From Chloroflexota bacterium (GTDB lineage: Bacteria > Chloroflexota > Anaerolineae > Anaerolineales > UBA11858), in the NCBI GenBank assembly GCA_034717875.1, contig JAYELX010000559.1, positions 1 to 30,820 of the forward strand: a stretch of 30,820 bases of DNA. The letters run 5' to 3'. The position numbers were made by a program, and so were the translations under genes. The notes beneath the pieces were generated by a model that saw only the letters and a program-made list of their open reading frames with translations, was not told where the DNA came from and did no database searches. Positions 1,590 through 20,000 of this stretch are shown one piece after another. Each line of letters begins with the position of its first letter. Positions within the stretch are counted from its first letter, which is position 1.

Positions 1590-1686
1590 AGGTGACAGTC
1601 ACCTATAAACTCGATCTACACCTTGAATCATATTGCTAACCAGCGTGTTATTTGTAACAAGACACTTTTGCAGGTGACTGTCACCC
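1590..1686. repeat. 97-bp element bounded by two AGGTGACWGTCACCY palindromes (copy 1)
   Basis: aggtgacagtcacct 1590-1604 and aggtgactgtcaccc 1672-1686; 82/97 identical to 11805-11901 by manual alignment. Confidence 0.85.
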
Positions 1687-2625
1687 GTGTTCATCACTTA
1701 TTATATAATCACTAACGTTTTTCCTATTGGGTACCGAGATTATTATAACTCCGCCGACAATTAGAAGTGAGCCGATGATTTGCAAGAAGCTGAGGCGTTC
1801 TCCCAAGACGATGTAGGCCAGAATGCCGGCGAAGGCAACTTCGGATGTGGACGTGATCGAGGCGATGCTGGCTTGGAGGTATCCCAGCCCGGTTGTGTAA
1901 AATCCAAATCCGGCAATTGTTGTGAGAAATACCAGGCTGGCGAAGTAGAGTAACACGTTGGTTGGAAGCGGCCAGGGTGCCGGTTGACCAAATTGGAAGG
2001 GCAGCAGCGTTAATGTGGCAAAGCCAAACACGTAAAGAAGTATCGTCCAGGGGTTGTAGGTGCCGCTTAGTTTTTTGCCGAATAGGCTGAATGAGCCGTA
2101 CGCTATCGCGGAGGCGAGGGCGATTAGAATGCCCAGCGTGGTTATTTGTACGCCGCCCAGACCGTTGATTCCTGATGTTAGTATGGTTCCAACGATGGAT
2201 AGGATTATGGCGATGATTTTACGTCGGGTTAGTGCTTCACCAAAGAGCAGCCATGCCATGACGGTGACAACGATAGGGGCGTTGCATTGAATAACGGTGG
2301 CGAGGGATGCACCTATGAGCATTACGGACGTATTCCATAGTACGTGGAAAGATCCGATGCTGAGTGCGCCCATTGCAAGAAACCAGGGAATATCACCTCG
2401 TTTGATGCGTAGTAATTTGGGGCGGATGATGGCGATGCCTACTAGTAATGATAGAAAGGTGAACATATCGCGGTAGAAGGCCAGCCCTACGGCAGTTATA
2501 CCACTTCCGTTAATGGTTAGATTAATGAATATCCCTGATGTGGACCAGAATACGGTTGCCAAGACAACCAGGATGAGTCCTTGTGCTCTGGTTGGGATTG
2601 GTTTGGAGGTGGTGTTGGTTTTCAT
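1681..2625 (-). CDS. EamA/DMT-family transporter
   Basis: 314 aa, about ten hydrophobic segments, two EamA-like halves (FWSTSGIF; ASIASITSTSEVAFAGILAYIVLGERL). Confidence 0.9.
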   Translation of the reverse strand: MKTNTTSKPIPTRAQGLILVVLATVFWSTSGIFINLTINGSGITAVGLAFYRDMFTFLSLLVGIAIIRPKLLRIKRGDIPWFLAMGALSIGSFHVLWNTSVMLIGASLATVIQCNAPIVVTVMAWLLFGEALTRRKIIAIILSIVGTILTSGINGLGGVQITTLGILIALASAIAYGSFSLFGKKLSGTYNPWTILLYVFGFATLTLLPFQFGQPAPWPLPTNVLLYFASLVFLTTIAGFGFYTTGLGYLQASIASITSTSEVAFAGILAYIVLGERLSFLQIIGSLLIVGGVIIISVPNRKNVSDYIISDEHG

Positions 2626-2629
2626 TGTT

Positions 2630-4204
2630 TTAGTTTGGGGCGAGTGCCATGCCTTGAATGTAGAGTGTGTTGAAGTCGGGGTCGAGATCGAGGTCGATTT
2701 GTTCGGCGTGAGCGGCTAATTTCTCTCCCAGGGCGAAACCTTCGTCGGTCAGGAATATGGCTGCGCCGAATCCTGCGCCATTGGCTATTGTTTCGACCGA
2801 TTCTCGGAGCACGGGTGGAATCATACCAATATTGATGATGGCGTCGATATCTACTTGCCCGCCGAATGAGCCGGTCAGAATTAATTTTTCTAAATCTTGC
2901 GGGCCGAGATCAAGTCGATTCATTAGGATGTCGATTGCGGCGCGAATGGCTCCTTTTGCTTTTTGCAGTTCGCGAATATCGAGTTGCGTAAGCATTAGTT
3001 TTCCGTCTGGGGTTAGCTTTATGCTGTGGATTCCGGCCTGGTTGTTTGTGACCAGGTTTTCGAATCCGACTGGATTGCTGGTGATGCGGCCACTTGGTTC
3101 GATTATTCCAGCGTGTCGGAATTGGTAAACTGCGCTGAGGAGACCTGATCCGGTCAACCCCACGGGTGCTTGGTCGCCGATGGTTTTTAGGATAACTTTG
3201 TTTCCATCTAGACTGAGATCGACAATTGCTCCATCGATGGCGCGCGAGCCACATGAGATGTTGACGCCTTCGAAAGCGGGGCCGGCTGCGGTAGAGGCAG
3301 TTAGGATGCGGTCTCCATCAGTAACCATGACTTCTCCGTTGGTGCCGAGGTCAATGGCGGCCATGGGTGCGGATGGTTTATCGAAGCCAAAGTATGCCAG
3401 GCAAGCCAGAGCGTCAGAGCCGACAAATCCGCCGATCAGAGGTGGAAGGGAGACTTTTGCTCCCTCTGGGAAGATCCCGCCCATGAGGGGGACTGCATCC
3501 ATAATGGAGGCTGCGCTGTGGGGTTGGAAGGGCATCACGGCTATTGTTTCGAGGGGCATTTCTGTCAGCAGGTGGTGCATGGCAACGTTACCGACAATGG
3601 TCACTCGCTCAATGCGTTCTCGAATCCGAGAGGAGAGGCGGAGTGAATCGACTGCCTGGTTGATGGATGCCAGGGCGAGGCGATGGAGACGTTCGGCGTT
3701 ATCGGGGTTGTCTACGGCGGCTGCTAGGCGAGAGATCACATCGGCGCCGTAGACGGTTTGTTGGTTGAGCCCGCCGCCTGCGACAGCTACTTCGCCGTTG
3801 TCTAACATGGTTAAAAATGCTGCTACCGTGGTTGTTCCCAAGTCTATGGCCAGGCCCAGCGGAACGTCTTGCTCGCGTTTGTAACGTGAACTGCTTTTGA
3901 AAAATTTGTTGGAATAAACTACGATAGGGGATAGTATGACTTGGGTATCAGCCTCTACGCGAGCGCGGCAGGCCAGACGGTTGTTGAGGGCCAATTCGCC
4001 GGTGGTCAGGTTTTTTAGCTCGATTTCATCGGGTTCACTGATTCCCTTTTCGACAAGTACCTTGCATTTTCCGCAAGTTCCTCGACCAGCGCAGGGTTGC
4101 TCTAGTGGAAAACCTGTTTTTGCGATGACGTCGCCAAGTATAGAATTTTTTTTGGCCTCGACAGTTTTTTCTTTTTCTCCATAGATAACGGTTACTTTGG
4201 GCAT
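2630..4204 (-). CDS. ATP-dependent reductive activator of corrinoid proteins (RACE/RACo, DUF4445 ASKHA family) with N-terminal [2Fe-2S] domain
   Basis: CAGRGTCGKC...LACRA plant-type ferredoxin motif; ASKHA motifs AIDLGTTTV and IDLGTNGE; STAAGPAFEG; GSFG; adjacent to corrinoid genes. Confidence 0.92.
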   Translation of the reverse strand: MPKVTVIYGEKEKTVEAKKNSILGDVIAKTGFPLEQPCAGRGTCGKCKVLVEKGISEPDEIELKNLTTGELALNNRLACRARVEADTQVILSPIVVYSNKFFKSSSRYKREQDVPLGLAIDLGTTTVAAFLTMLDNGEVAVAGGGLNQQTVYGADVISRLAAAVDNPDNAERLHRLALASINQAVDSLRLSSRIRERIERVTIVGNVAMHHLLTEMPLETIAVMPFQPHSAASIMDAVPLMGGIFPEGAKVSLPPLIGGFVGSDALACLAYFGFDKPSAPMAAIDLGTNGEVMVTDGDRILTASTAAGPAFEGVNISCGSRAIDGAIVDLSLDGNKVILKTIGDQAPVGLTGSGLLSAVYQFRHAGIIEPSGRITSNPVGFENLVTNNQAGIHSIKLTPDGKLMLTQLDIRELQKAKGAIRAAIDILMNRLDLGPQDLEKLILTGSFGGQVDIDAIINIGMIPPVLRESVETIANGAGFGAAIFLTDEGFALGEKLAAHAEQIDLDLDPDFNTLYIQGMALAPN

Positions 4205-4419
4205 TGAGTTGTTGCTCCTTTTGGATTGATGCTAATATGCAGCGTAATTTTCTGACCCGTTTTTAGCCAGCATAAGTTAGATGTGCCTATCTTGAGAAAG
4301 TTACATAGTATTCTCTCAATATTTCGGGGTAGCTTGAACCGGTCTTCGCGTAGCATGCCCTTTGGGGTACCTGATCGTGCTCGTTGGTAACTCGGTCACG
4401 CCATACGTAAAATAAAAAC

Positions 4420-4451
4420 ATGTAGTGGCACTTGTTGATGCGCCACTACAT
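4420..4451. terminator. GTAG-type REP-like hairpin, probably also a terminator after mvhD
   Basis: Perfect 10-bp stem atgtagtggc / gccactacat, 24 bp beyond the mvhD stop. Confidence 0.55.
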
Positions 4452-4474
4452 ACAAAAGAAATTTTGCTGAGGGG

Positions 4475-4891
4475 TCATGATTTTAAGGGATTGGGGCCCA
4501 GCTCCTTGATGCGGTCAGTCATCTCTTGAGCTGCTTCCGCAAAGGCCTGTCCTTGTCCCCCAGACATGAAGAAAATATCCAGACGATCCTGATCAAATCC
4601 AATCTCGTCCAGCATCTTTTTGGTTCGCTTGACCCGGGCCTGGGCGCGTACGTTGCCGTTAACGTGGTGACAGTTCCCGATGGGGCAAGCTATCACGTAA
4701 ACACCGTCGGCGCCATCCTCGAAAGCCTTAAGAATATAGCGTGGGTCTGTTTTACCCGTACAGGGTAAATTCACCAATTTTACATTGGCGGGATACTCGA
4801 TGCGCAACGATCCTGCCGTGTCGGCAGCCATGTTGGCGCAGTAGATACATATAAAGGCAGTGAGTTCAGGTTCGAAGGTTTTATCATTCAT
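4475..4891 (-). CDS. mvhD: MvhD-like [2Fe-2S] subunit (hydrogenase delta/HdrA partner); start corrected to ATG 4891, 138 aa
   Basis: FICIYCANMAAD, NLPCTGKTDP, ADGVYVIACPIGNCHHVNGN; ATG overlaps the hdrA TGA (ATGA 4891-4888), so the track's 40-aa N-terminal extension is unlikely. Confidence 0.9.
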   Translation of the reverse strand: MNDKTFEPELTAFICIYCANMAADTAGSLRIEYPANVKLVNLPCTGKTDPRYILKAFEDGADGVYVIACPIGNCHHVNGNVRAQARVKRTKKMLDEIGFDQDRLDIFFMSGGQGQAFAEAAQEMTDRIKELGPNPLKS

Positions 4892-7800
4892 ATTGTCACC
4901 CAACTTCCTAGGACTGGATATTCTGGTACCATAATTTGTGTATCGGTGTAATTCATCAATTGAATTGCGTTTGCTGGGCACTCCCCGGCGCAAGTGCCGC
5001 ATCCGTGGCATAAGTTTGGCTCGATGTAGGCTGCTCCACCCAGGCTGCCCACACCGCTTTCGCTGTCATCCACTTTGGGGATTTCGAATGGGCAGGTGCG
5101 CGTACAGGTTAGGCAGCCGACACATTTATCAGTGTCTACCACGGCGATGACCCCGCCATAATAATAGGGGTGTTCGGATAGAATTGTGGTCGCCCGTCCT
5201 GCGGTAGCGAGGGCCTGGCTGATGCTTTCTTCGATGAATTTGGGGTAATGGGCAATGCCGCAGAGGAAGATGCCTTCTTCCATAAAGTCCATGGGGCGCA
5301 TCTTGATGTGGGCTTCCAGGAAGAATCCTTCGGTGGAAAGGGGAACGTTGAGTAATTTCGCTAATTCCTGGGTGCCATTTGATGGTACTATGGCGGTGCT
5401 CAGCACTAGGAGACCAGGATCGATGGACAAGGGCTGGTCCAACATAGGTTCCTGCAGTTGAACGCGTAGATTGCCGTTAATGCTTTTGACTTGGGGCTTG
5501 TTTTCGTTGTCGTAGCGGACGAAGATCACGCCTCGCTCCCGAGCATCGGTGTAATATTGCTCTCGGAAACCGTAAGTGATGATATCTTTGTACAGCACTG
5601 TGACGTTGCAATCGGGGTTGATGACTTTGAGACGGATTGCGTTTTTAATCGTGCTGGTGCAGCAAATGCGGGAGCAATAATCATGGTCGGCACCATCAGG
5701 GCGCACGCATTGGATCATGACTACATCATCCAACTCGGCTACCTCATCCATTCGGTGGGTGATAGTGTCCTCCAATTCCAGTTGGGTGAGCACATTAGGA
5801 TGCTGCCCTAATAGATACTGACTACCGCGGGCTTCATGTCCGCCGGTGGCAACGATAGTTGCCCCGTGTGATATCTTTGTTTCACCACCGTCTTGATGGC
5901 GTAGTAGTGAGTGATATGCACCTGCATGACCTTCGTGGCTCACGACTTCCGTTTGATTGTAAACATCAATGTGCTCATGTACACGTACTCGGTTGACCAG
6001 GTCGCGCAGTAACTGTTGGGGATTTTCTCCTCCGACAAGATACTGTATTTTATTCAAGTTGCCACCCAGTTCATTCTCGCGTTCGACTAGAACAGCATTG
6101 AAGCCTGAATCAGCAACGGCAAGAGCGGATGTCATACCGGAGATGCCTCCGCCGATGACCAAAGCTCGTTGGGTTGGGGAGATAGAAGATTTATAGATAG
6201 GTTGCAAGGTGCTGGCGCGTCCCGTAGCTACACGAATCAATTCCATTGCTTTGCGGGTTGCCTTTTCTGGTTCGTGTGGGTGTACCCATGCGCAGAACTC
6301 GCGGATATTGGCCATTTCCAGCAGGTAAGCGTTCAATCCTGCTTCTTTGATGGTGCGTTGGAAGAGCGATTTATGCGTTCGGTCGCTGCATCCTGCTACG
6401 ACGACACGGTTGAGGTCATGCTCTGCGATAGCGTCTTTGATGGCTTGTTGTCCTTCGGGGAAACATCCATATCCGATCTCTTCGGCGTGAACCACATAGG
6501 GATAGGTTCGAGATTTTGCGATTAGACGTTCGATGGATACTGGCCCTTCGATAGATGGATGGCACCGGCAGACAAAGACCCCCACACGTGGTTTTTCATT
6601 GCTGATGTCCCGCTCGGGGGGGAAGTCCTCATTACTCAAGAATGGGTATTCGCGGCTATAGGGGGCTTTCCCGAGTTGGTTGTTGAAAAGACGCATGACA
6701 TCGCCCGCTGCCCCTGCCGAGTCGATTAGAGTATCGGAAATTTCCTTGGGGCTTGAGAACGCCCCGCATACGTAGATGCCGGCCCGGCTGGTTTCCAGGG
6801 GGTTGAATTTGTCTGTTTTGCAGAAACCGTATTGGTTGAGGGCGAAATTAAGCTTTTGGGCAAGTGTGGCTGCCCCGGAGGGGGGTTCCATGCCCACTGA
6901 AAGCACGACCATGTCGAAAGGTTCTTCTTTAATCTGTTTATCACGCGGTTCGAGATATTTAATGATCAGATCGTTAGTGGTAGGGTCTTCATCTAATTGA
7001 GATATGCGGCAGCGAGTGTATTCGACGCCATACTCCTCGTGCGAGCGTTTGAAATAGGAGTTGAATTCCTTGTTGAAGGCGCGCTCATCCATCATGAAAA
7101 TTTGGCAGTGCACGTCGTCAATGCGTTGCTTGGCCAAGATAGCTTCCTTACTGGCATACATGCAGCAAATTGATGAGCAGTACGGGTGATCTTGATCGCG
7201 AGAGCCGATACATTGAAGCCAGGCAATACGTTTTGGCGTTGTGTTGTCTGATGGGCGCAGAACAAGCCCGTTGGTTGGTCCGGAACGACTGACGAAGCGT
7301 TCGTATTGCATGCTGTGGACGACATTGGTGTAGCGGTTGTATCCAAATTCGGCCAATGTGCCGGGGTCTACTAATTTATAACCCAGGGCTAGAATAATGG
7401 CAGATACGGCAACTTTCTCTTCCTGCGGCTTCTCGTTTAGATTGATTGCTCCCGTTGGACATACATCTTCGCAGCGATGGCAATCATCACAATAATCCCC
7501 TTTGTCGATTATGTAGGTATTTGGTATTGCCCGTGGCGCGGTTTTGTGGATGGCCATACGCGACACGATTGATTCTTGAAATTCGCTGGGCATTCGTTGT
7601 GGGCAAGCGATAGCACACAAACCGCAGTTCGTACATCTGTCCGCGTCTACATAGCGAGGTTGGTGCTGCAGGGTGACGGTAAAATTACCCGCTTGACCAC
7701 TGGCATCAACGATCTCGGTTTGAGTCATAATTTCAATATTGGGGTGTTGGTTGTTGTCCATGAAAGCTGGCGAAATTGCCGGGCGTGTGCATCCGTAGCC

Positions 7801-8007
7801 GTGGTCTGAAGTTCCACGGCAGAGCACGCAGTCATGGGTGGGGAACATATAACCCAACTGGGCCACACGTCCTCCCAAGCCTGCATCCCGTTCGACTAGA
7901 TAGACTTTTAAGCCAGCTTCAGCCAGGTCGATAGCAGCACGCATACCCCCAACGCCGCCACCAACGACTAGAATTGCACCTTCAGGATTTTTGCGGTTTT
8001 TTTTCAT
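4888..8007 (-). CDS. hdrA: Heterodisulfide reductase subunit A-like flavoprotein, 1039 aa, two FAD modules
   Basis: GGGVGG and GGGISG FAD motifs; LQCIGSRD..YCSSICCM and IQCV..YCSRICCT clusters; four CxxCxxCxxxCP ferredoxin motifs; internal GVFVCRC..NIREFCAWVH module; AGGA SD. Confidence 0.93.
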   Translation of the reverse strand: MKKNRKNPEGAILVVGGGVGGMRAAIDLAEAGLKVYLVERDAGLGGRVAQLGYMFPTHDCVLCRGTSDHGYGCTRPAISPAFMDNNQHPNIEIMTQTEIVDASGQAGNFTVTLQHQPRYVDADRCTNCGLCAIACPQRMPSEFQESIVSRMAIHKTAPRAIPNTYIIDKGDYCDDCHRCEDVCPTGAINLNEKPQEEKVAVSAIILALGYKLVDPGTLAEFGYNRYTNVVHSMQYERFVSRSGPTNGLVLRPSDNTTPKRIAWLQCIGSRDQDHPYCSSICCMYASKEAILAKQRIDDVHCQIFMMDERAFNKEFNSYFKRSHEEYGVEYTRCRISQLDEDPTTNDLIIKYLEPRDKQIKEEPFDMVVLSVGMEPPSGAATLAQKLNFALNQYGFCKTDKFNPLETSRAGIYVCGAFSSPKEISDTLIDSAGAAGDVMRLFNNQLGKAPYSREYPFLSNEDFPPERDISNEKPRVGVFVCRCHPSIEGPVSIERLIAKSRTYPYVVHAEEIGYGCFPEGQQAIKDAIAEHDLNRVVVAGCSDRTHKSLFQRTIKEAGLNAYLLEMANIREFCAWVHPHEPEKATRKAMELIRVATGRASTLQPIYKSSISPTQRALVIGGGISGMTSALAVADSGFNAVLVERENELGGNLNKIQYLVGGENPQQLLRDLVNRVRVHEHIDVYNQTEVVSHEGHAGAYHSLLRHQDGGETKISHGATIVATGGHEARGSQYLLGQHPNVLTQLELEDTITHRMDEVAELDDVVMIQCVRPDGADHDYCSRICCTSTIKNAIRLKVINPDCNVTVLYKDIITYGFREQYYTDARERGVIFVRYDNENKPQVKSINGNLRVQLQEPMLDQPLSIDPGLLVLSTAIVPSNGTQELAKLLNVPLSTEGFFLEAHIKMRPMDFMEEGIFLCGIAHYPKFIEESISQALATAGRATTILSEHPYYYGGVIAVVDTDKCVGCLTCTRTCPFEIPKVDDSESGVGSLGGAAYIEPNLCHGCGTCAGECPANAIQLMNYTDTQIMVPEYPVLGSWVTI

Positions 8008-8015
8008 TTTTATTC

Positions 8016-8666
8016 CTATATCTCTCGCAAATCATAGATACTCATATCTTCCAGGTTATTGATGACCTCTGTCAGTTGCTTTTTATCAATATTATTGACC
8101 TTGCATACAGAGATCCAAGCATCGGGAATATTCTCTGGGTAATAGCCAACGTTTACCGAAAGATACCCCCCCGCTTCGGCGATGGCGTTGGTCAGTCTGG
8201 CGATTGCCCCCACGCGGTCTGGTTGCAGAACGGAAACGCGTATTCCGTGTCGACGGGCGCCCAATAAATCAACCATGATGTTGAAGATGTCGTTGTCGGT
8301 GATGATACCTACAAGATGCCCATCCCGCATCACCGGTAGACAGCCGATGCGCTCTTCGGCCATAATGCGGGCGGCCTCCTCGATGGGGGTATCATCACCG
8401 ATGGTGGTTATATCTTTGAGCATTACTGCGCGAGCCTTGATTTTTGCTAGAGTATAAGTGATCTCGAAGCGGCTGAAGTTGCTTATATCGGAGGGGAGTG
8501 CGCTCAATAATGTGCTTCGGGTGACCAATCCAATTAGCCGTTGCTCTTCATCCAAAATAGGGAGATGTCGAAAGCTGTTTTCTATCATCAATGCCCGTGC
8601 TTCAGTGACAGGCATTTCTGGGCCCCCACAGATTGGATCAGGTGTCATGCGATCTTTTACAAGCAT
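8016..8666 (-). CDS. CBS-pair + ACT domain protein (AcuB-like), paralog 1
   Basis: MLVKDRMTPDPI, FRHLPILD, IGCLPVM..LVGIITDND, C-terminal ACT-like DRVGAIARLTNAI. Confidence 0.88.
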   Translation of the reverse strand: MLVKDRMTPDPICGGPEMPVTEARALMIENSFRHLPILDEEQRLIGLVTRSTLLSALPSDISNFSRFEITYTLAKIKARAVMLKDITTIGDDTPIEEAARIMAEERIGCLPVMRDGHLVGIITDNDIFNIMVDLLGARRHGIRVSVLQPDRVGAIARLTNAIAEAGGYLSVNVGYYPENIPDAWISVCKVNNIDKKQLTEVINNLEDMSIYDLREI

Positions 8667-8751: not shown

Positions 8752-8823
8752 TCCCTTCACCCTAGCTCTCTCTCACCCTAGCTTTCTCCCTCACCCTAGC
8801 CCTCTCCCAAAGGGAGAGGGGAC
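8752..8823. repeat. BoxC-like pyrimidine/purine palindromic repeat with a triplicated 5' arm
   Basis: tcaccctagc three times (8757, 8773, 8791), then hairpin cctctccc-aaa-gggagagg. Confidence 0.65.
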
Positions 8824-9734: not shown

Positions 9735-11738
9735 TCATTTCGACAAACGCGGTTTTCCTACTGCTTGTGCACGAATACGGTAGGAATCCAACCCGTCGGA
9801 TATTTCTTCGACAGTTACTTGTGGAGTGTCTGCCCCGGAGCGTAGGGCTGCGTTCAGGGCGCGTTCCTGCCCAAGCTCGCGGGCGTGGGTGAGCGCATCT
9901 TCCAGTTCATCGTATTCGTCGCGGCTATCACGTGCCTGCACATAATAACTGATAATATCCAGCCCCGATCTGGATAGGTGAGGGTACACCAAAATCTCTT
10001 CGGTGACCACCACGCTGCCGGCAATTGCACCTACGGCGTTAGCAACGAAGTAGTAATCAGGTAAGACTAGTTTGGTGTGGAGTGCCTCGGCTACGTCCTT
10101 GAGCATGATCTCGGCAGGGGCACCGATGCCAATGATGGGGTCTTGCAGGCGGATTTGTGTTTCCAGTTGTGGATGTGAGGCGTGTAGACTGTTGCGGAAG
10201 AACCAGGTGCCGATGGTCTCTTTTGGGGTTGAATCGGTGGGGAGTTCTTTCCCGGTTAGGAATTTTATAATGGCTTGAGCGATTGTGTCCGTGATCTGAG
10301 ACCAGATAAACTCGGTAAATTTGGGAATATCCCAGGAAAGATAATTGCTGAAGACTGCTAACCCGTATTTCGCAGCTTGAAGGTCCCAAGGATTATACCG
10401 CTTATCAATATGGAGTAAATCGGTGGAAGTGAATCCGGATTTACCGATAATCTCTTGCCGTAGAAGTTCATTGGCATTAAGCTGATTTTTATGTAAAAGT
10501 CCAGCCTCTTTGACTATTTCCGAGACAGGTTTTGGGCCATCGCGCAGCATGCCGACGAGTTTCTTTTCCTGGTTGCTTTTGATGATGTGCTCGTTTTTTG
10601 GCTCTCGAAGCAAGAACCAGTACTCTAACCAGTCGGGCGATGGGGCTGGCCATGATTCATGAGCCAGCATTTTCAAGTGTTTTTTTATCTGTGGGTGTTG
10701 ATGGGCTAGATAAGACAAAGGGACTACTCGTTCGGGGCCAATGACGATGTTGTTTTTTCTATCAATGGTGATGTGGCTGTCTCCCCCCAAGCCAATGGAA
10801 AGCAAGTTGGCTGCTTTGACGGCTGTTTTGTAATTAGATACGGATGCTCCCTCTTCGTTGATGGTCACTTCTCCATTTTGGATCAATGCCAGGTCGGTGG
10901 TTGTTCCTCCTACGTCGATGACGAGGGCGTCATCGTGATTGGATAGGAATCGACCTCCGATTGCGCTGGCCGCCGGGCCAGAGTGGATGGTTTCCACTGG
11001 AGAACGGGTGGCGAATTCGGCGCTCATCAAGGTGCCATCACCACGCACAACCATCAGGGGCGCATCAATGCCGCGGCGATTCATGGCTCTGCGCACGGCA
11101 ATAATAAAATCTTGCAGCACGGCAATCAGTGAAGCGTTCAACGATGCCGTAGTCGCTCGTTCGACAGAGCCAAGCTTTGTGGATAGCTGATGCCCCAGTA
11201 CAATGGGCAGGTCGCAAACCTGGGAGATTGCCTTTTGGATTCGAGTTTCGTGTTCCGGATTAAGTGGGCTGAAGTAACTGGAGACGGCTATGGCATCAAC
11301 TTGATCTTTGATTTGATTAGTTTTGGATAAAATTGCTGGTAAGTCTAAGTTGTCTTTTTCTTGACCAAAAAGATTATGACCGCCATCGAAGTAGAAATAA
11401 TTTGGAGTAGCGAACTGTTTTTCCAGCTTAAAGGATACGATCAAGTCAGGATCGTACCCGATCAAGAAGAGTGCAACTAGCTTGCTTTTCCCTTCGGCAA
11501 TGGCGTTAGTTGCCAACGTTGTTGAGATGGAAACCATTTGAATTGCATCAGGGTCTTGGATATCGATGGCTTTGATGACGTTTTCGATGCCGATGGAAAA
11601 GTCGCGTTTTGTGGTCAGGCTTTTGTGTGATGCCAGGACTTTGTGCGAGTGATATTCTAATAAAACTCCATCCGTGTAAGTTCCGCCGGTATCGATCCCC
11701 AGTACCAGAGTCTTGGAAGGCTTGTTTTTTTGTTCCAA
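9735..11738 (-). CDS. Hydantoinase/oxoprolinase A-family (ASKHA) protein, paralog 2
   Basis: LGIDTGGTYTDG, STTLATNA, SGPAAS, DVGGTTTD, IGLGGDS, VANAVGA; TTG start with GAGG SD. Confidence 0.9.
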   Translation of the reverse strand: MEQKNKPSKTLVLGIDTGGTYTDGVLLEYHSHKVLASHKSLTTKRDFSIGIENVIKAIDIQDPDAIQMVSISTTLATNAIAEGKSKLVALFLIGYDPDLIVSFKLEKQFATPNYFYFDGGHNLFGQEKDNLDLPAILSKTNQIKDQVDAIAVSSYFSPLNPEHETRIQKAISQVCDLPIVLGHQLSTKLGSVERATTASLNASLIAVLQDFIIAVRRAMNRRGIDAPLMVVRGDGTLMSAEFATRSPVETIHSGPAASAIGGRFLSNHDDALVIDVGGTTTDLALIQNGEVTINEEGASVSNYKTAVKAANLLSIGLGGDSHITIDRKNNIVIGPERVVPLSYLAHQHPQIKKHLKMLAHESWPAPSPDWLEYWFLLREPKNEHIIKSNQEKKLVGMLRDGPKPVSEIVKEAGLLHKNQLNANELLRQEIIGKSGFTSTDLLHIDKRYNPWDLQAAKYGLAVFSNYLSWDIPKFTEFIWSQITDTIAQAIIKFLTGKELPTDSTPKETIGTWFFRNSLHASHPQLETQIRLQDPIIGIGAPAEIMLKDVAEALHTKLVLPDYYFVANAVGAIAGSVVVTEEILVYPHLSRSGLDIISYYVQARDSRDEYDELEDALTHARELGQERALNAALRSGADTPQVTVEEISDGLDSYRIRAQAVGKPRLSK

Positions 11739-17578: not shown

Positions 17579-18445
17579 TTATTCTTCCTTTTGACGGGCG
17601 CGGTATGCTTTGATCCAGCTCATACCGTACTCATCACGCCCCATGCTTAAATCGGCGGCGAGAATGGCGATACTCACTTCGGACTCGAGCGGGTTGGTGA
17701 TGGGGCAGGTTAGACCAGCATGGATGGACATAGCGATGAATGTGGAGTTGATATAGTGTCTATCAGGCATACCAAAAGAAATGTTGCTAGCCCCCATGGT
17801 AATGTTGACACCAAACTCTTCGACAATTTTCTCGATAGTATCCATGGCGATAAGCCCGGCGGTGTGATCAGCCCCCATTGTCAATGCCAGGGGATCAATG
17901 ACGATGTCTTCTGCAGGAATACCTAGTTTACCGGCTCGCTCGATGATCTTGGCCGCTACCTTGAGGCGTGCATCGGCTGTTTCCGGGATTCCATCGTCAT
18001 CCATGCACAGGCCAATCACAGCGGCGCCGTATTCCTTAACCAGGGGCAACACAGCTTCGAGCGACTTCTCCTCGCCGTTGACGGAGTTGATCAACGCCTT
18101 CCCTTCGTAGAGCTTCAGAGCAGCTTCTAACACTTTGGGGTCAGGGGTGTCGATGCACAAAGGTACGTCAGTGACTTCCATTACCGTTGTGAGAACTTTC
18201 TTGAACATGGCAACTTCATCGACGCCGGGGACACCAGCATTGACATCGAGAATTTTAGCGCCTGCTTCAACCTGAGATTTGGCATCTTTTCGGACAATAT
18301 CGAAATCACCGGCTTTGAGCGATTTGAGCATTTTCTTGCGCCCAGTCGGGTTGATGCGCTCACCGATAATGACTGTAGAGTTGTCGCGGTTGATTTCTAC
18401 GGTCTGGGTTTTCGAAGAAACAATAGTGGTAAGATATTTGGTCAT
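17579..18445 (-). CDS. Methyltetrahydrofolate:corrinoid methyltransferase (AcsE/MeTr/MtqA-like pterin-binding TIM barrel)
   Basis: IIGERINPTG, LDVNAG, LCIDT, INSVNGE, VIDP, GASNISFGMP; stand-alone MetH folate-domain homolog. Confidence 0.9.
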   Translation of the reverse strand: MTKYLTTIVSSKTQTVEINRDNSTVIIGERINPTGRKKMLKSLKAGDFDIVRKDAKSQVEAGAKILDVNAGVPGVDEVAMFKKVLTTVMEVTDVPLCIDTPDPKVLEAALKLYEGKALINSVNGEEKSLEAVLPLVKEYGAAVIGLCMDDDGIPETADARLKVAAKIIERAGKLGIPAEDIVIDPLALTMGADHTAGLIAMDTIEKIVEEFGVNITMGASNISFGMPDRHYINSTFIAMSIHAGLTCPITNPLESEVSIAILAADLSMGRDEYGMSWIKAYRARQKEE

Positions 18446-19104: not shown

Positions 19105-19749
19105 TCAGATATCTCTTACGTCCATGATTTTTACTACCAGTGGCTTGATGATTTCAATTAGCTTGTCTTTGCTAATATCGGCCACTTTGAGATGGCAGCC
19201 CCAATTGGTGGGGTCTTCCCCCAGGAAAGTATTCAGGGCCAGGATGAGACCGCCTTGTTCGGTGATTGTAGAGCTGATTTGCGCCAGTGAGCCTTTGAAA
19301 TTGGGAGCTAAAGCAGTCAAACGCACGCCTTTGTCTCGGGCCATCATAAGTTCGAGGAATGTCTTAAAAATATCAGACTCGGTGATAATTCCAACTACCA
19401 CTTCATCACGAATCACGGGCAAACCGCCAATGTTATTGTCATTCATAAGACGAGCAGCGTCTTCGATAGGGCAATCTTCTTCGACGGTGATGACATCTTT
19501 GGTCATTGTCTCTTTTACCTTTACTTTATTGAGAAGGTAGGTTATTTCCCATACATTCAACGACGTGACCGGGGATGGGGATGCGTATAGCAGGTCTGTG
19601 TGGGAGACAATTCCCAATAATTTATCTTCTTTATCAACGACGGGGAAGCGATGTACTTTCTCGCGCCGCATCCAATCCAGAGCATCAGCTATTGGAGTGT
19701 CGGTTGTGATGGTGATGGGATTAGGTGTCATTCGGTTTTTTACTAGCAT
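19105..19749 (-). CDS. CBS-pair + ACT domain protein (AcuB-like), paralog 2
   Basis: MLVKNRMTPNPI, HRFPVVD, IGGLPVI..VGIITESD, NFKGSLAQISSTI. Confidence 0.88.
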   Translation of the reverse strand: MLVKNRMTPNPITITTDTPIADALDWMRREKVHRFPVVDKEDKLLGIVSHTDLLYASPSPVTSLNVWEITYLLNKVKVKETMTKDVITVEEDCPIEDAARLMNDNNIGGLPVIRDEVVVGIITESDIFKTFLELMMARDKGVRLTALAPNFKGSLAQISSTITEQGGLILALNTFLGEDPTNWGCHLKVADISKDKLIEIIKPLVVKIMDVRDI

Positions 19750-20000
19750 TTTTAATCTCCTTTGTTGTAGAATGTGGTAAGAATTGATTGAAAATACTCG
19801 TGATATAGGTGACAGTCAGATTCTACCACCACCCAGAAAATTTGTGGGTGTTCATTTGGTTAGGTGTGCACGCAAATGTTGTTAGATGTATCGATAGTGA
19901 GCGAATGTCGGTCTAGCGCTGCGAAGCGTTTGATTGCGAAGCAGTGTATCGATACCAGTGAGTGGATTCCTGGAAGTAATATCTCTTTGGCAAGGTGCTT

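Follow-up and report, generated by a model that had tools for sequence, protein, structure and literature searches.

A conserved double HdrA with MvhD in Anaerolineae as a candidate electron hub of an Hdr-type methylene-tetrahydrofolate reductase

Introduction

Of the steps of the Wood-Ljungdahl pathway, that of the Hdr-type methylene-tetrahydrofolate (methylene-THF) reductase is understood least, and both its electron carriers and the question of bifurcation are unsettled. The Sporomusa ovata enzyme is the only one of the type that has been studied biochemically; its HdrA, which contains two flavin modules, brought down MetF, HdrB, and MvhD in pull-downs, and bifurcation could not be demonstrated (Kremp et al. 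2022, PMC9430772). For Moorella thermoacetica, a MetFV-HdrABC-MvhD complex is cited (Mock et al. 2014, cited in PMC9430772). A gene cluster hdrA-mvhD-metVF-hdrCB was drawn for marine Anaerolineae (DscP3, An-B22, SM23_63, and others) in 2017 (Sewell, Kaster, Spormann, PMC5736913). Fused or tandem HdrA proteins are described from anaerobic methanotrophic archaea (ANME), where HdrA3/4, 5/6, and 12/13 show complementary loss of Cys197 and of the N-terminal domain (Chadwick et al. 2022, PMC9012536). According to the same study, such pairs are to be taken as a built-in heterodimer, in which the two-fold symmetry seen in methanogen HdrA is broken (PMC9012536). Here, we describe a fused double HdrA (HdrA2x), encoded together with MvhD and a CBS-pair protein on contig JAYELX010000559.1 of a Chloroflexota bacterium.

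The window, i.e., the whole stretch analyzed, is the entire contig (C559, 30,820 bp) of an Anaerolineales (Chloroflexota) metagenome-assembled genome (MAG; 3.5 Mb, 566 contigs, ~92% complete), whose nearest relatives are Anaerolineales/Anaerolineae MAGs. Like the Moorella/Sporomusa "type IV" systems, the locus has an HdrA with an extra flavin module and an adjacent mvhD. The genes metV/metF and hdrB/hdrC are not in the same cluster in the window; they are found on contig C234 of the same genome and adjacent to the unit in most related loci. We favor the reading, with a probability of about 0.6, that cbs-hdrA2x-mvhD encodes the flavin/iron-sulfur electron hub of an Hdr-type (type IV) methylene-THF reductase, with partners provided in trans from C234.

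Results

Domain anatomy of HdrA2x

The CBS gene opens the unit and ends 8 bp before hdrA. The mvhD ATG (4891-4889) and the hdrA TGA (4890-4888) overlap in an ATGA, and neither the MvhD nor the HdrA2x of the window has an in-frame TGA. Cys15, 18, 44, 69, and 74 of MvhD are invariant across six aligned copies (U is displayed as C in this alignment). hdrA2x and mvhD are a real, intact gene pair.

We derived the domain order by aligning the protein with 5ODC_A, the HdrA of known structure from Methanothermococcus thermolithotrophicus, and read the conservation from an alignment of 71 full-length orthologs. Three stretches of HdrA2x align. Residues 18-379 match 5ODC_A 152-501, a thioredoxin-reductase-like flavin adenine dinucleotide (FAD) module with an inserted 2x[4Fe-4S] ferredoxin domain. 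The second stretch, residues 471-649, corresponds to 2-180 and covers the N-terminal cluster domain with the beginning of FAD module 2; the third, residues 845-1024, corresponds to 467-641 and covers the end of FAD module 2 with the C-terminal 2x[4Fe-4S] ferredoxin.

Module 1: This module comes without an N-terminal or C-terminal domain of its own. Cys60 and Cys63 are the counterparts of Cys194 and Cys197 in 5ODC_A, and the flavin-domain motif CxGxRDx6-8CSx2CC is canonical (C266...C277-S-S-I-C281-C282). Cys125/128/131/135 and Cys173/176/179/183 of the inserted domain are conserved; in methanogen HdrA, the inserted domain is the ferredoxin-facing one (PMC9430772).

Insert in module 1: Relative to methanogen HdrA, 13 residues, RGTSDHGYGCTRP, are inserted right after Cys63 (HdrA2x residues 61-73, window 7789-7827). 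The insert is near-invariant among the orthologs and holds an invariant additional Cys73, and AlphaFold2 confidence is low there. The insert with Cys73 may provide a further cluster ligand where the modules meet.

Module 2: The internal copy of the N-terminal cluster domain precedes this module, and its Cys480/482/515/540 are invariant. The four Cys of the flavin-domain motif (767, 778, 782, 783) are invariant too, with the GxRD part diverged. As there is no Cys between 573 and 766, module 2 lacks both an equivalent of Cys197 and the inserted ferredoxin domain. In the C-terminal ferredoxin domain, eight Cys are 99% conserved.

Both modules: The two GxGxxG dinucleotide folds (residues 14-21 and 617-624) have invariant glycines. 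Both Cys and the Lys of CCMYASK (281-287) and CCTSTIK (782-788) are invariant; Lys287 and Lys788 align with methanogen Lys409, and the likewise invariant Glu236 and Glu746 align with Glu356. This Glu/Lys pair is given as the signature of a potentially bifurcating flavin (PMC9430772, citing Appel et al. 2021).

The N-terminal cluster, inserted ferredoxin, and C-terminal ferredoxin domains thus occur once each, split between the two modules, and from these motifs HdrA2x is predicted to bind two FAD and seven [4Fe-4S] clusters. CIGSRD stands where a nucleotide-binding fold would be. Hence, there is no NAD(P)H site, and electrons should enter and leave via partners only.

An AlphaFold2 model (41 orthologs) reached a pTM of 0.79 and a mean pLDDT of 76.6. 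The top fold matches in Foldseek were methanogen HdrA chains, with a TM-score of up to 0.86 on the target; the PDB copy searched by sequence and fold held no double-HdrA structure. Against the NCBIfam HdrA/HdrA2 equivalogs NF041778, NF041891, and NF040770, HdrA2x scored 682, 642, and 819 bits, below the cut-offs of 1400, 1300, and 1100, respectively. The protein is, therefore, a relative of HdrA and not the methanogen enzyme. A preliminary description, made from the DNA letters, had proposed a double-flavin HdrA of this domain order, a CC-x4-K motif in both halves, and an overlap of mvhD with the hdrA stop; alignment and coordinates bear it out on all three.

We also considered that hdrA2x-mvhD could be a functionless, decaying leftover of a broken methylene-THF reductase operon, as the usual downstream genes are absent from the contig. 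However, both open reading frames (ORFs) are intact, every cofactor ligand is invariant, and the fold is confidently predicted. Full-length orthologs of the clade, 69-76% identical, share the cbs-hdrA2x-mvhD arrangement and the same start/stop overlap. Decay is, in our judgment, very improbable.

Orthologous loci and partner genes

A scan of species-representative genomes gave 80 loci, nearly all from Anaerolineae, each with a ~1040-1075-aa protein that is 55-76% identical to HdrA2x over the full length. mvhD comes next after the ortholog in nearly every locus whose contig continues. The tree has two clades, of which the smaller, clade A with 28 tree rows, includes the window; 53 other loci were counted apart from these rows. 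L092, a complete chromosome, was annotated with Pfam, and its proteins were used as probes on the other loci. Its gene order is corrinoid protein, fused MetV-MetF, CBS, HdrA2x, MvhD, HdrL, MvhD, MetV, MetF, and fused HdrC-HdrB, where "HdrL" denotes an HdrA of 1586 aa into which a GltD/NfnB-type NAD(P)H module is inserted. HdrL-MvhD-MetV-MetF-HdrCB follows HdrA2x-MvhD throughout the larger clade. Of the loci that are not among the 28 clade-A rows, 25 extend for ≥8 kb downstream; HdrL is present in 23 of them and MetV/MetF/HdrCB in 20.

The basal branch of clade A (L020, L079, L093) has MtrH-CBS-HdrA2x-MvhD-MetV-MetF-HdrCB, and L016, L018, L091, and L111 have HdrL-MvhD-MetV-MetF-HdrCB-CBS-HdrA2x-MvhD. 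The nearest relatives of the window, L014 and L015 (76% identical), share with it the methyltransferase island and the ATP-dependent corrinoid activator RACE, without metVF-hdrCB. In a 16-row sub-branch of clade A, the three-gene unit lies amid unrelated genes, e.g., for a ROK kinase and ABC transporters. The CBS gene is directly upstream of the ortholog in 28/28 clade-A loci and in one clade-B sub-branch; its CBS-ACT product is likely a ligand-sensing regulatory partner.

One sub-branch has the fused MetV-MetF (536 aa; DUF5981 + MTHFR; L092 7588-9198) directly upstream of CBS-HdrA2x, with equivalents in L039, L041, L043, L050, L057, L060, and L087 and with separate metV and metF further downstream. 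Fused plus separate MetV/MetF suggests two reductase cores per cluster. Many Anaerolineae genomes encode, alongside HdrL, a third class of full-length double HdrA paralogs of ~1000-1040 aa with 42-45% identity to the HdrA2x of the window (e.g., G016:C70:6330-9401, G063:C240:22699-25740, G126:C85:9729-12761).

Contig C234 of the window's own genome carries HdrL, MvhD, HdrL-like, MvhD, MetV, MetF, and fused HdrCB genes. Both MvhD copies and the HdrL-like gene there (locus L107, 9349-14201, minus strand) have an in-frame TGA and probably, judging by this, encode selenoproteins. The HdrL piece on C234 is the C-terminal part, and a further, N-terminal piece is on C50; a test of the C50-C234 junction by end overlap gave no exact overlap. 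C551 (locus L106, 1918-6907) has a standard hdrC-hdrB-hdrA(669 aa)-mvhD-mvhG-like (NiFe small subunit) set that is cut by the contig end. Counted together, HdrA-type genes number at least four and MvhD copies at least five in the genome. It also has a group-3-like NiFe hydrogenase on C187, acetyl-CoA synthase on C219, and formyl-THF synthetase (FTHFS) on C181; no FeFe hydrogenase was found in it.

The preliminary description had noted that no HdrBC, hydrogenase, Flx, or MetF gene was nearby. This is right for contig C559. Pfam scans of the long minus-strand ORFs showed no CCG/HdrB, HdrC, NiFe/FeFe hydrogenase, Flx, or MTHFR/MetF gene, no mvhA/mvhG hydrogenase genes accompany hdrA2x-mvhD within the window, and no Flx-type (FAD_binding_6/NAD_binding_1) gene or hdrBC is present in the window (the search for flx covered the window). 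As a property of the system, the claim does not stand, since metV-metF-hdrCB is on C234. Because the window is a whole contig, "nearby" is not judgeable beyond 4.4 kb downstream of mvhD, and with these genes on C234 and beside the ortholog in most relatives, their absence here is a local rearrangement. Cognate hdrBC or mvhAG genes elsewhere, forming a standard complex, had been named as evidence that would speak against the preliminary proposal. The genome has such genes in part, namely metV-metF-hdrCB with HdrL-mvhD on C234 and hdrC-hdrB-hdrA-mvhD-mvhG on C551. A second such point was missing linkage of this HdrA type with methyltransferase genes in other genomes; linkage is seen, but only in 5/28 close loci and 1/53 other loci.

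Co-occurrence was tabulated by hand in a 301-genome sample of the class, with an ortholog defined as full length and ≥54% identical; 61 genomes besides the window's qualified. MetV was present in 61/61 genomes with HdrA2x and 135/239 without, and MttB in 48/61 with and 118/239 without; the counts are descriptive, as related genomes are not independent samples. Two of the 13 ortholog-bearing genomes without MttB are 100% complete. HdrA2x was never seen without MetV and often without MttB in this sample. Five genomes with the "orphan" arrangement all have MetV elsewhere, and the three regions that were fetched read HdrL-MvhD-(HdrL-MvhD-)MetV-MetF-HdrCB. A look at MttB and RACE in ten relatives was uninformative, as all ten have both; it was the 301-genome table that discriminated. 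Of the two roles suggested in the preliminary description, handling the electrons of the methyl-THF/methylene-THF couple is supported by metV-metF-hdrCB beside orthologs in most relatives and by the MetV counts.

The same comparison bears on a second explanation, in which the unit of the window's clade has left methylene-THF reduction and is now an autonomous ferredoxin-linked module for another partner; candidates are the C551 HdrCB/Mvh set, formate dehydrogenase, or another thiol/disulfide system. It would account for the unit being unlinked from metVF-hdrCB in 22/28 clade-A loci, with unrelated neighbors in the 16-locus sub-branch, and the metVF-hdrCB clusters of those genomes retain their own HdrL-mvhD. 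Possible partners exist in the genome, i.e., the hdrC-hdrB-hdrA-mvhD-mvhG set on C551 and the hydrogenase on C187. However, the C551 set is equipped with its own HdrA and MvhD, and no alternative partner gene recurs beside the unit. Seven loci of the same clade (6/28 and L111) keep metV-metF-hdrCB adjacent, and the 61/61 co-occurrence with MetV also argues against a changed role. We consider this explanation rather unlikely.

The boundary between mvhD and RACE

mvhD is followed by a hairpin, a 213-bp spacer, and RACE, and the EamA gene comes next. The other role suggested in the preliminary description was a supply of low-potential electrons to RACE. In this explanation, HdrA2x-MvhD would be a dedicated donor to RACE and would pass low-potential electrons via MvhD to its [2Fe-2S] domain, re-reducing Co(II) corrinoid proteins of the methyltransferase island. 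The N-terminal 2Fe-2S domain of RACE does require a donor. RACE comes after mvhD in the window, L014, L015, and L033 and after hdrCB in L079; as the adjacency recurs in three separate sub-branches (window/L014/L015, L033, and L079), it is not an accident of one genome. In L033 (4539-16965), CBS-HdrA2x-MvhD-RACE is flanked by divergent genes for the glycine-cleavage P-protein on one side and by a FolC-like Mur-ligase gene on the other, and here the four genes stay together with no MttB/corrinoid gene within 7-10 kb. The neighborhood of L033 is folate-themed and lacks methyltransferases.

Several observations stand against a dedicated donor. A strong terminator-like hairpin lies between mvhD and RACE in the window and in L014/L015; that of the window is 22 nt past the mvhD stop and probably ends the cbs-hdrA-mvhD transcript ahead of RACE. 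Comparable hairpins follow mvhD in L014, L015, L019, L025, and L026, whereas L079, with metV next after mvhD, has none there. RACE adjoins the unit in 5/28 clade-A loci and 0/53 other loci, the genomes with the orphan arrangement have RACE genes elsewhere, and 13/61 ortholog genomes lack MttB. Corrinoid reactivation is, moreover, a repair reaction. The ATP-driven activator shifts Co(II)/Co(I) from -530 to about -250 mV (PMC6739815); at this potential, an ordinary ferredoxin or flavodoxin suffices for RACE. The order in L079, which runs on into RACE-EamA and is that of the window with metV-metF-hdrCB between mvhD and RACE, suggests that RACE-EamA travelled with a methyl-THF/corrinoid gene neighborhood, and this shared theme explains the adjacency equally well. 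A supply to RACE, hence, finds little support, and we hold it to be improbable. RACE is treated here as a neighbor and not as a member of the cbs-hdrA2x-mvhD unit.

The palindrome GTGACWGTCAC was also compared across the window, where it has 13 matches at ≤2 mismatches vs 4.9 expected. Exact copies are found only at 1592, 1674, 11807, 11889, and 17513, and the copy at 19809 has one mismatch. Each of the two hydantoinase-like genes is preceded by a pair of exact copies with a spacing of 82 bp, and a single one is upstream of GntR2. None was found upstream of either cbs-hdrA2x or RACE. There is thus no sign of regulation shared with the methyltransferase genes, which counts against the donor role, although it carries little weight in either direction.

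The region at about 8755-8822 (minus strand), ahead of the CBS gene, contains an inverted repeat, CCCTCTCCC-TTT-GGGAGAGGG, and after it three direct copies of GCTAGGGTGA with 16-18 bp spacing. An AT-rich, promoter-like sequence and the ribosome-binding site of CBS come just after these copies. Together, the inverted repeat and the GCTAGGGTGA copies may form an array to which a regulator binds, or they may be a small repeat element.

The methyl-transfer island

The remainder of the contig is a methyl-transfer island, and all genes under discussion are on the minus strand (Table 1). NCBIfam matches of RACE to AcsV/RamA-type families all stay under their cut-offs. The two hydantoinase-like ATPases match the accessory proteins GlmL and MutL weakly, which hints at a cofactor-reactivation role; L014, L015, and L020 also keep both genes. 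The second CBS-ACT copy precedes the MtrH-like gene, from which it is separated by an 85-aa ORF and a gap. With the order MtrH-CBS-HdrA2x in L020, L079, and L093, both CBS-ACT copies flank methyl-THF-related genes.

Table 1 Features of the window (contig C559, 30,820 bp); residue numbers refer to HdrA2x
Feature	Position	Strand	Basis or remark
Hydantoinase-A/ASKHA-type ATPase genes (two)	2-1306 and 9735-11738	-	In island, without B subunit
EamA transporter	1681-2625	-	Next after RACE
RACE/RACo-type ATP-dependent corrinoid reductive activator, N-terminal [2Fe-2S]	2630-4204	-	PF14574, PF17651, PF00111
Terminator-like hairpin, 13-14 bp stem, 8-nt loop, then TTTTTATTTT	4418-4453	-	Fold energy -20.8 kcal/mol
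mvhD, [2Fe-2S] electron-transfer adaptor, 138 aa	4475-4891	-	PF02662, 146 bits vs cut-off 22.3
Fused double HdrA (HdrA2x), 1039 aa	4888-8007	-	ORF, domain scans, alignment to 5ODC_A
C-terminal 2x[4Fe-4S] ferredoxin domain, residues ~954-1017	4957-5148	-	Fer4, Fer4_9, Fer4_7; 5ODC_A 568-641
FAD module 2, residues ~610-945	5173-6180	-	GGGISG, Cys767/778/782/783, Glu746/Lys788
Internal copy of HdrA N-terminal (MvhD-like) cluster domain, residues ~471-600	6208-6597	-	5ODC_A 2-130, E 1.7e-49
FAD module 1, residues ~10-445	6673-7980	-	GGGVGG, Cys60/Cys63, C266-x-G-x-R-D...C277-S-x2-C281-C282, Glu236/Lys287
Inserted 2x[4Fe-4S] ferredoxin domain, residues ~118-200	7408-7656	-	Fer4; aligned to 5ODC_A 237-314
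CBS-pair protein, ACT-like C-terminal part (AcuB-like)	8016-8666	-	PF00571 x2, 108 bits
MtrH/AcsE-like methyl-THF:corrinoid methyltransferase	17579-18445	-	PF00809; NF005719, 321 bits vs cut-off 259
Second CBS-pair + ACT-like (AcuB-like) paralog	19105-19749	-	
MttB-family genes (four)			In island, without in-frame stops
Corrinoid proteins (two)			In island
GntR/FCD regulators (two)			In island
DAO flavoprotein			In island
Liv-type ABC importer			In island

Discussion

Gene linkage and the constant co-occurrence with MetV point to a probable association of HdrA2x with MetVF and to a probable role in methylene-THF reductase activity. HdrA2x would be the bifurcating or confurcating, probably ferredoxin-linked module of the enzyme. 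The anatomy, the family conservation, and the linkage and co-occurrence with MetV are observed, while we infer the physical association in trans, ferredoxin as a substrate, the direction of flow, and bifurcation or confurcation itself.

HdrA2x would act as a single-chain pseudo-heterodimer, in which two HdrA flavin modules carry complementary accessory domains. Module 1 would provide Cys197 and the ferredoxin-facing inserted domain, while module 2 would provide the N-terminal cluster domain, which requires a Cys197 partner, and the C-terminal ferredoxin. As neither module has an NAD(P)H site, HdrA2x must swap electrons with partners. HdrCB would relay electrons between MetV-MetF and one HdrA2x flavin, and the inserted domain of module 1 would be the contact for ferredoxin. 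MvhD would dock a further partner, which could be the NAD(P)H-binding HdrL in these genomes.

MttB-type methyltransferases of the island would capture methyl groups, and the MtrH-like enzyme would catalyze the step that forms methyl-THF. The reductase would then run in reverse and oxidize methyl-THF. This oxidation requires +23 kJ/mol with NAD+ and +48 kJ/mol with ferredoxin (PMC9430772). Since it is endergonic with either acceptor alone, a ferredoxin-linked Hdr module in a methyl-transfer island is physiologically sensible.

Several points weigh against this assignment. The contig has no metV, metF, or hdrCB, and blastx of the mvhD-RACE gap and two other gaps showed no remnant, with no match better than E 0.1; any association would thus need to be in trans here. 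The C234 cluster owns HdrL-mvhD modules, and HdrA2x may be dispensable there. In the 16-locus sub-branch, the unit stands alone among unrelated genes, as would be expected of an autonomous module no less than of a trans-acting one. Within the class, MetV is widespread (197/301), and related genomes are not independent. Finally, the S. ovata enzyme showed no bifurcation (PMC9430772).

In a variant of the methylotrophic scenario, the unit of the window's clade would be a free-standing ferredoxin-coupled confurcation module specialized for methylotrophy, which either provides a second, low-potential stream to MetFV-HdrCB in trans and so makes methyl-THF oxidation feasible or passes electrons directly to RACE, its recurrent neighbor. 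We consider this variant unlikely; if true, it would link corrinoid reactivation to flavin-based electron bifurcation by whichever route.

For the hub of a methylene-THF reductase, which we favor, the enzyme type, the Anaerolineae cluster, and the idea of a fused-HdrA pseudo-heterodimer are already published. New are the ~1040-aa double HdrA as a conserved Anaerolineae family, the constant CBS-ACT companion in one clade, and the few genomes with HdrA2x apart from metVF-hdrCB and inserted in a methyltransferase island. Also new is that the inserted ferredoxin domain and both Glu/Lys pairs are retained. As the cluster type and the double-HdrA idea are both in print, the gains are modest. With the inserted domain and Glu/Lys at both flavins, the Anaerolineae HdrA2x is nevertheless a good candidate for testing ferredoxin-coupled bifurcation or confurcation. 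That its gene lies among methylamine/betaine methyltransferases, inside their island, speaks for the oxidative direction; for anaerobic methylotrophy, this direction is the energetic bottleneck.

Among the known systems, methanogen HdrA (5ODC_A, 8RVY_A, 7BKB_A) is the best match in sequence and fold and shares all four domain types and the cofactor motifs. It is a single ~650-aa module that forms a homodimer, whereas HdrA2x has two modules in one chain. CoM-S-S-CoB chemistry is not expected for HdrA2x, in a bacterium.

The acetogen HdrAs were compared by their description in PMC9430772 and not by sequence. S. ovata HdrA and HdrA2x have in common an extra flavin module, an MvhD-like N-terminal domain, a second flavin module, and a C-terminal ferredoxin. 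mvhD is located beside hdrA, as in the S. ovata type IV system (HdrCBA-MvhD-MetVF). The association with metV-metF and hdrC/hdrB is common to the acetogen systems and the orthologous loci, with hdrCB fused in Chloroflexi. M. thermoacetica HdrA, which is interrupted by a GltD domain, is the counterpart of the HdrL of the relatives and of C234. In contrast, HdrA2x keeps the inserted 2x[4Fe-4S] domain of module 1, which both acetogen HdrAs lack, so that seven vs five clusters are predicted. It has the Glu/Lys pair at both flavin sites, and S. ovata HdrA has it at one only. Unlike in the acetogen systems, a CBS-ACT gene precedes HdrA2x, and metVF-hdrCB is on a separate contig in the window's genome.

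The cluster drawn by Sewell, Kaster, and Spormann and the loci recovered here agree in phylum and class, fused hdrCB, and cluster type, and a pterin-binding gene is present in the drawn loci. The parts of that paper concerned with this cluster (PMC5736913) contain neither the split arrangement, with hdrA2x-mvhD in an MttB/corrinoid/RACE island away from metVF-hdrCB, nor an analysis of the double HdrA as a pseudo-heterodimer. The ANME pairs and HdrA2x are alike in that Cys197 and the N-terminal cluster domain are complementary across two HdrA copies. The order in HdrA2x is reversed, with the Cys197 copy first and the copy with the N-terminal domain second, and HdrA2x is bacterial and associated with MetFV.

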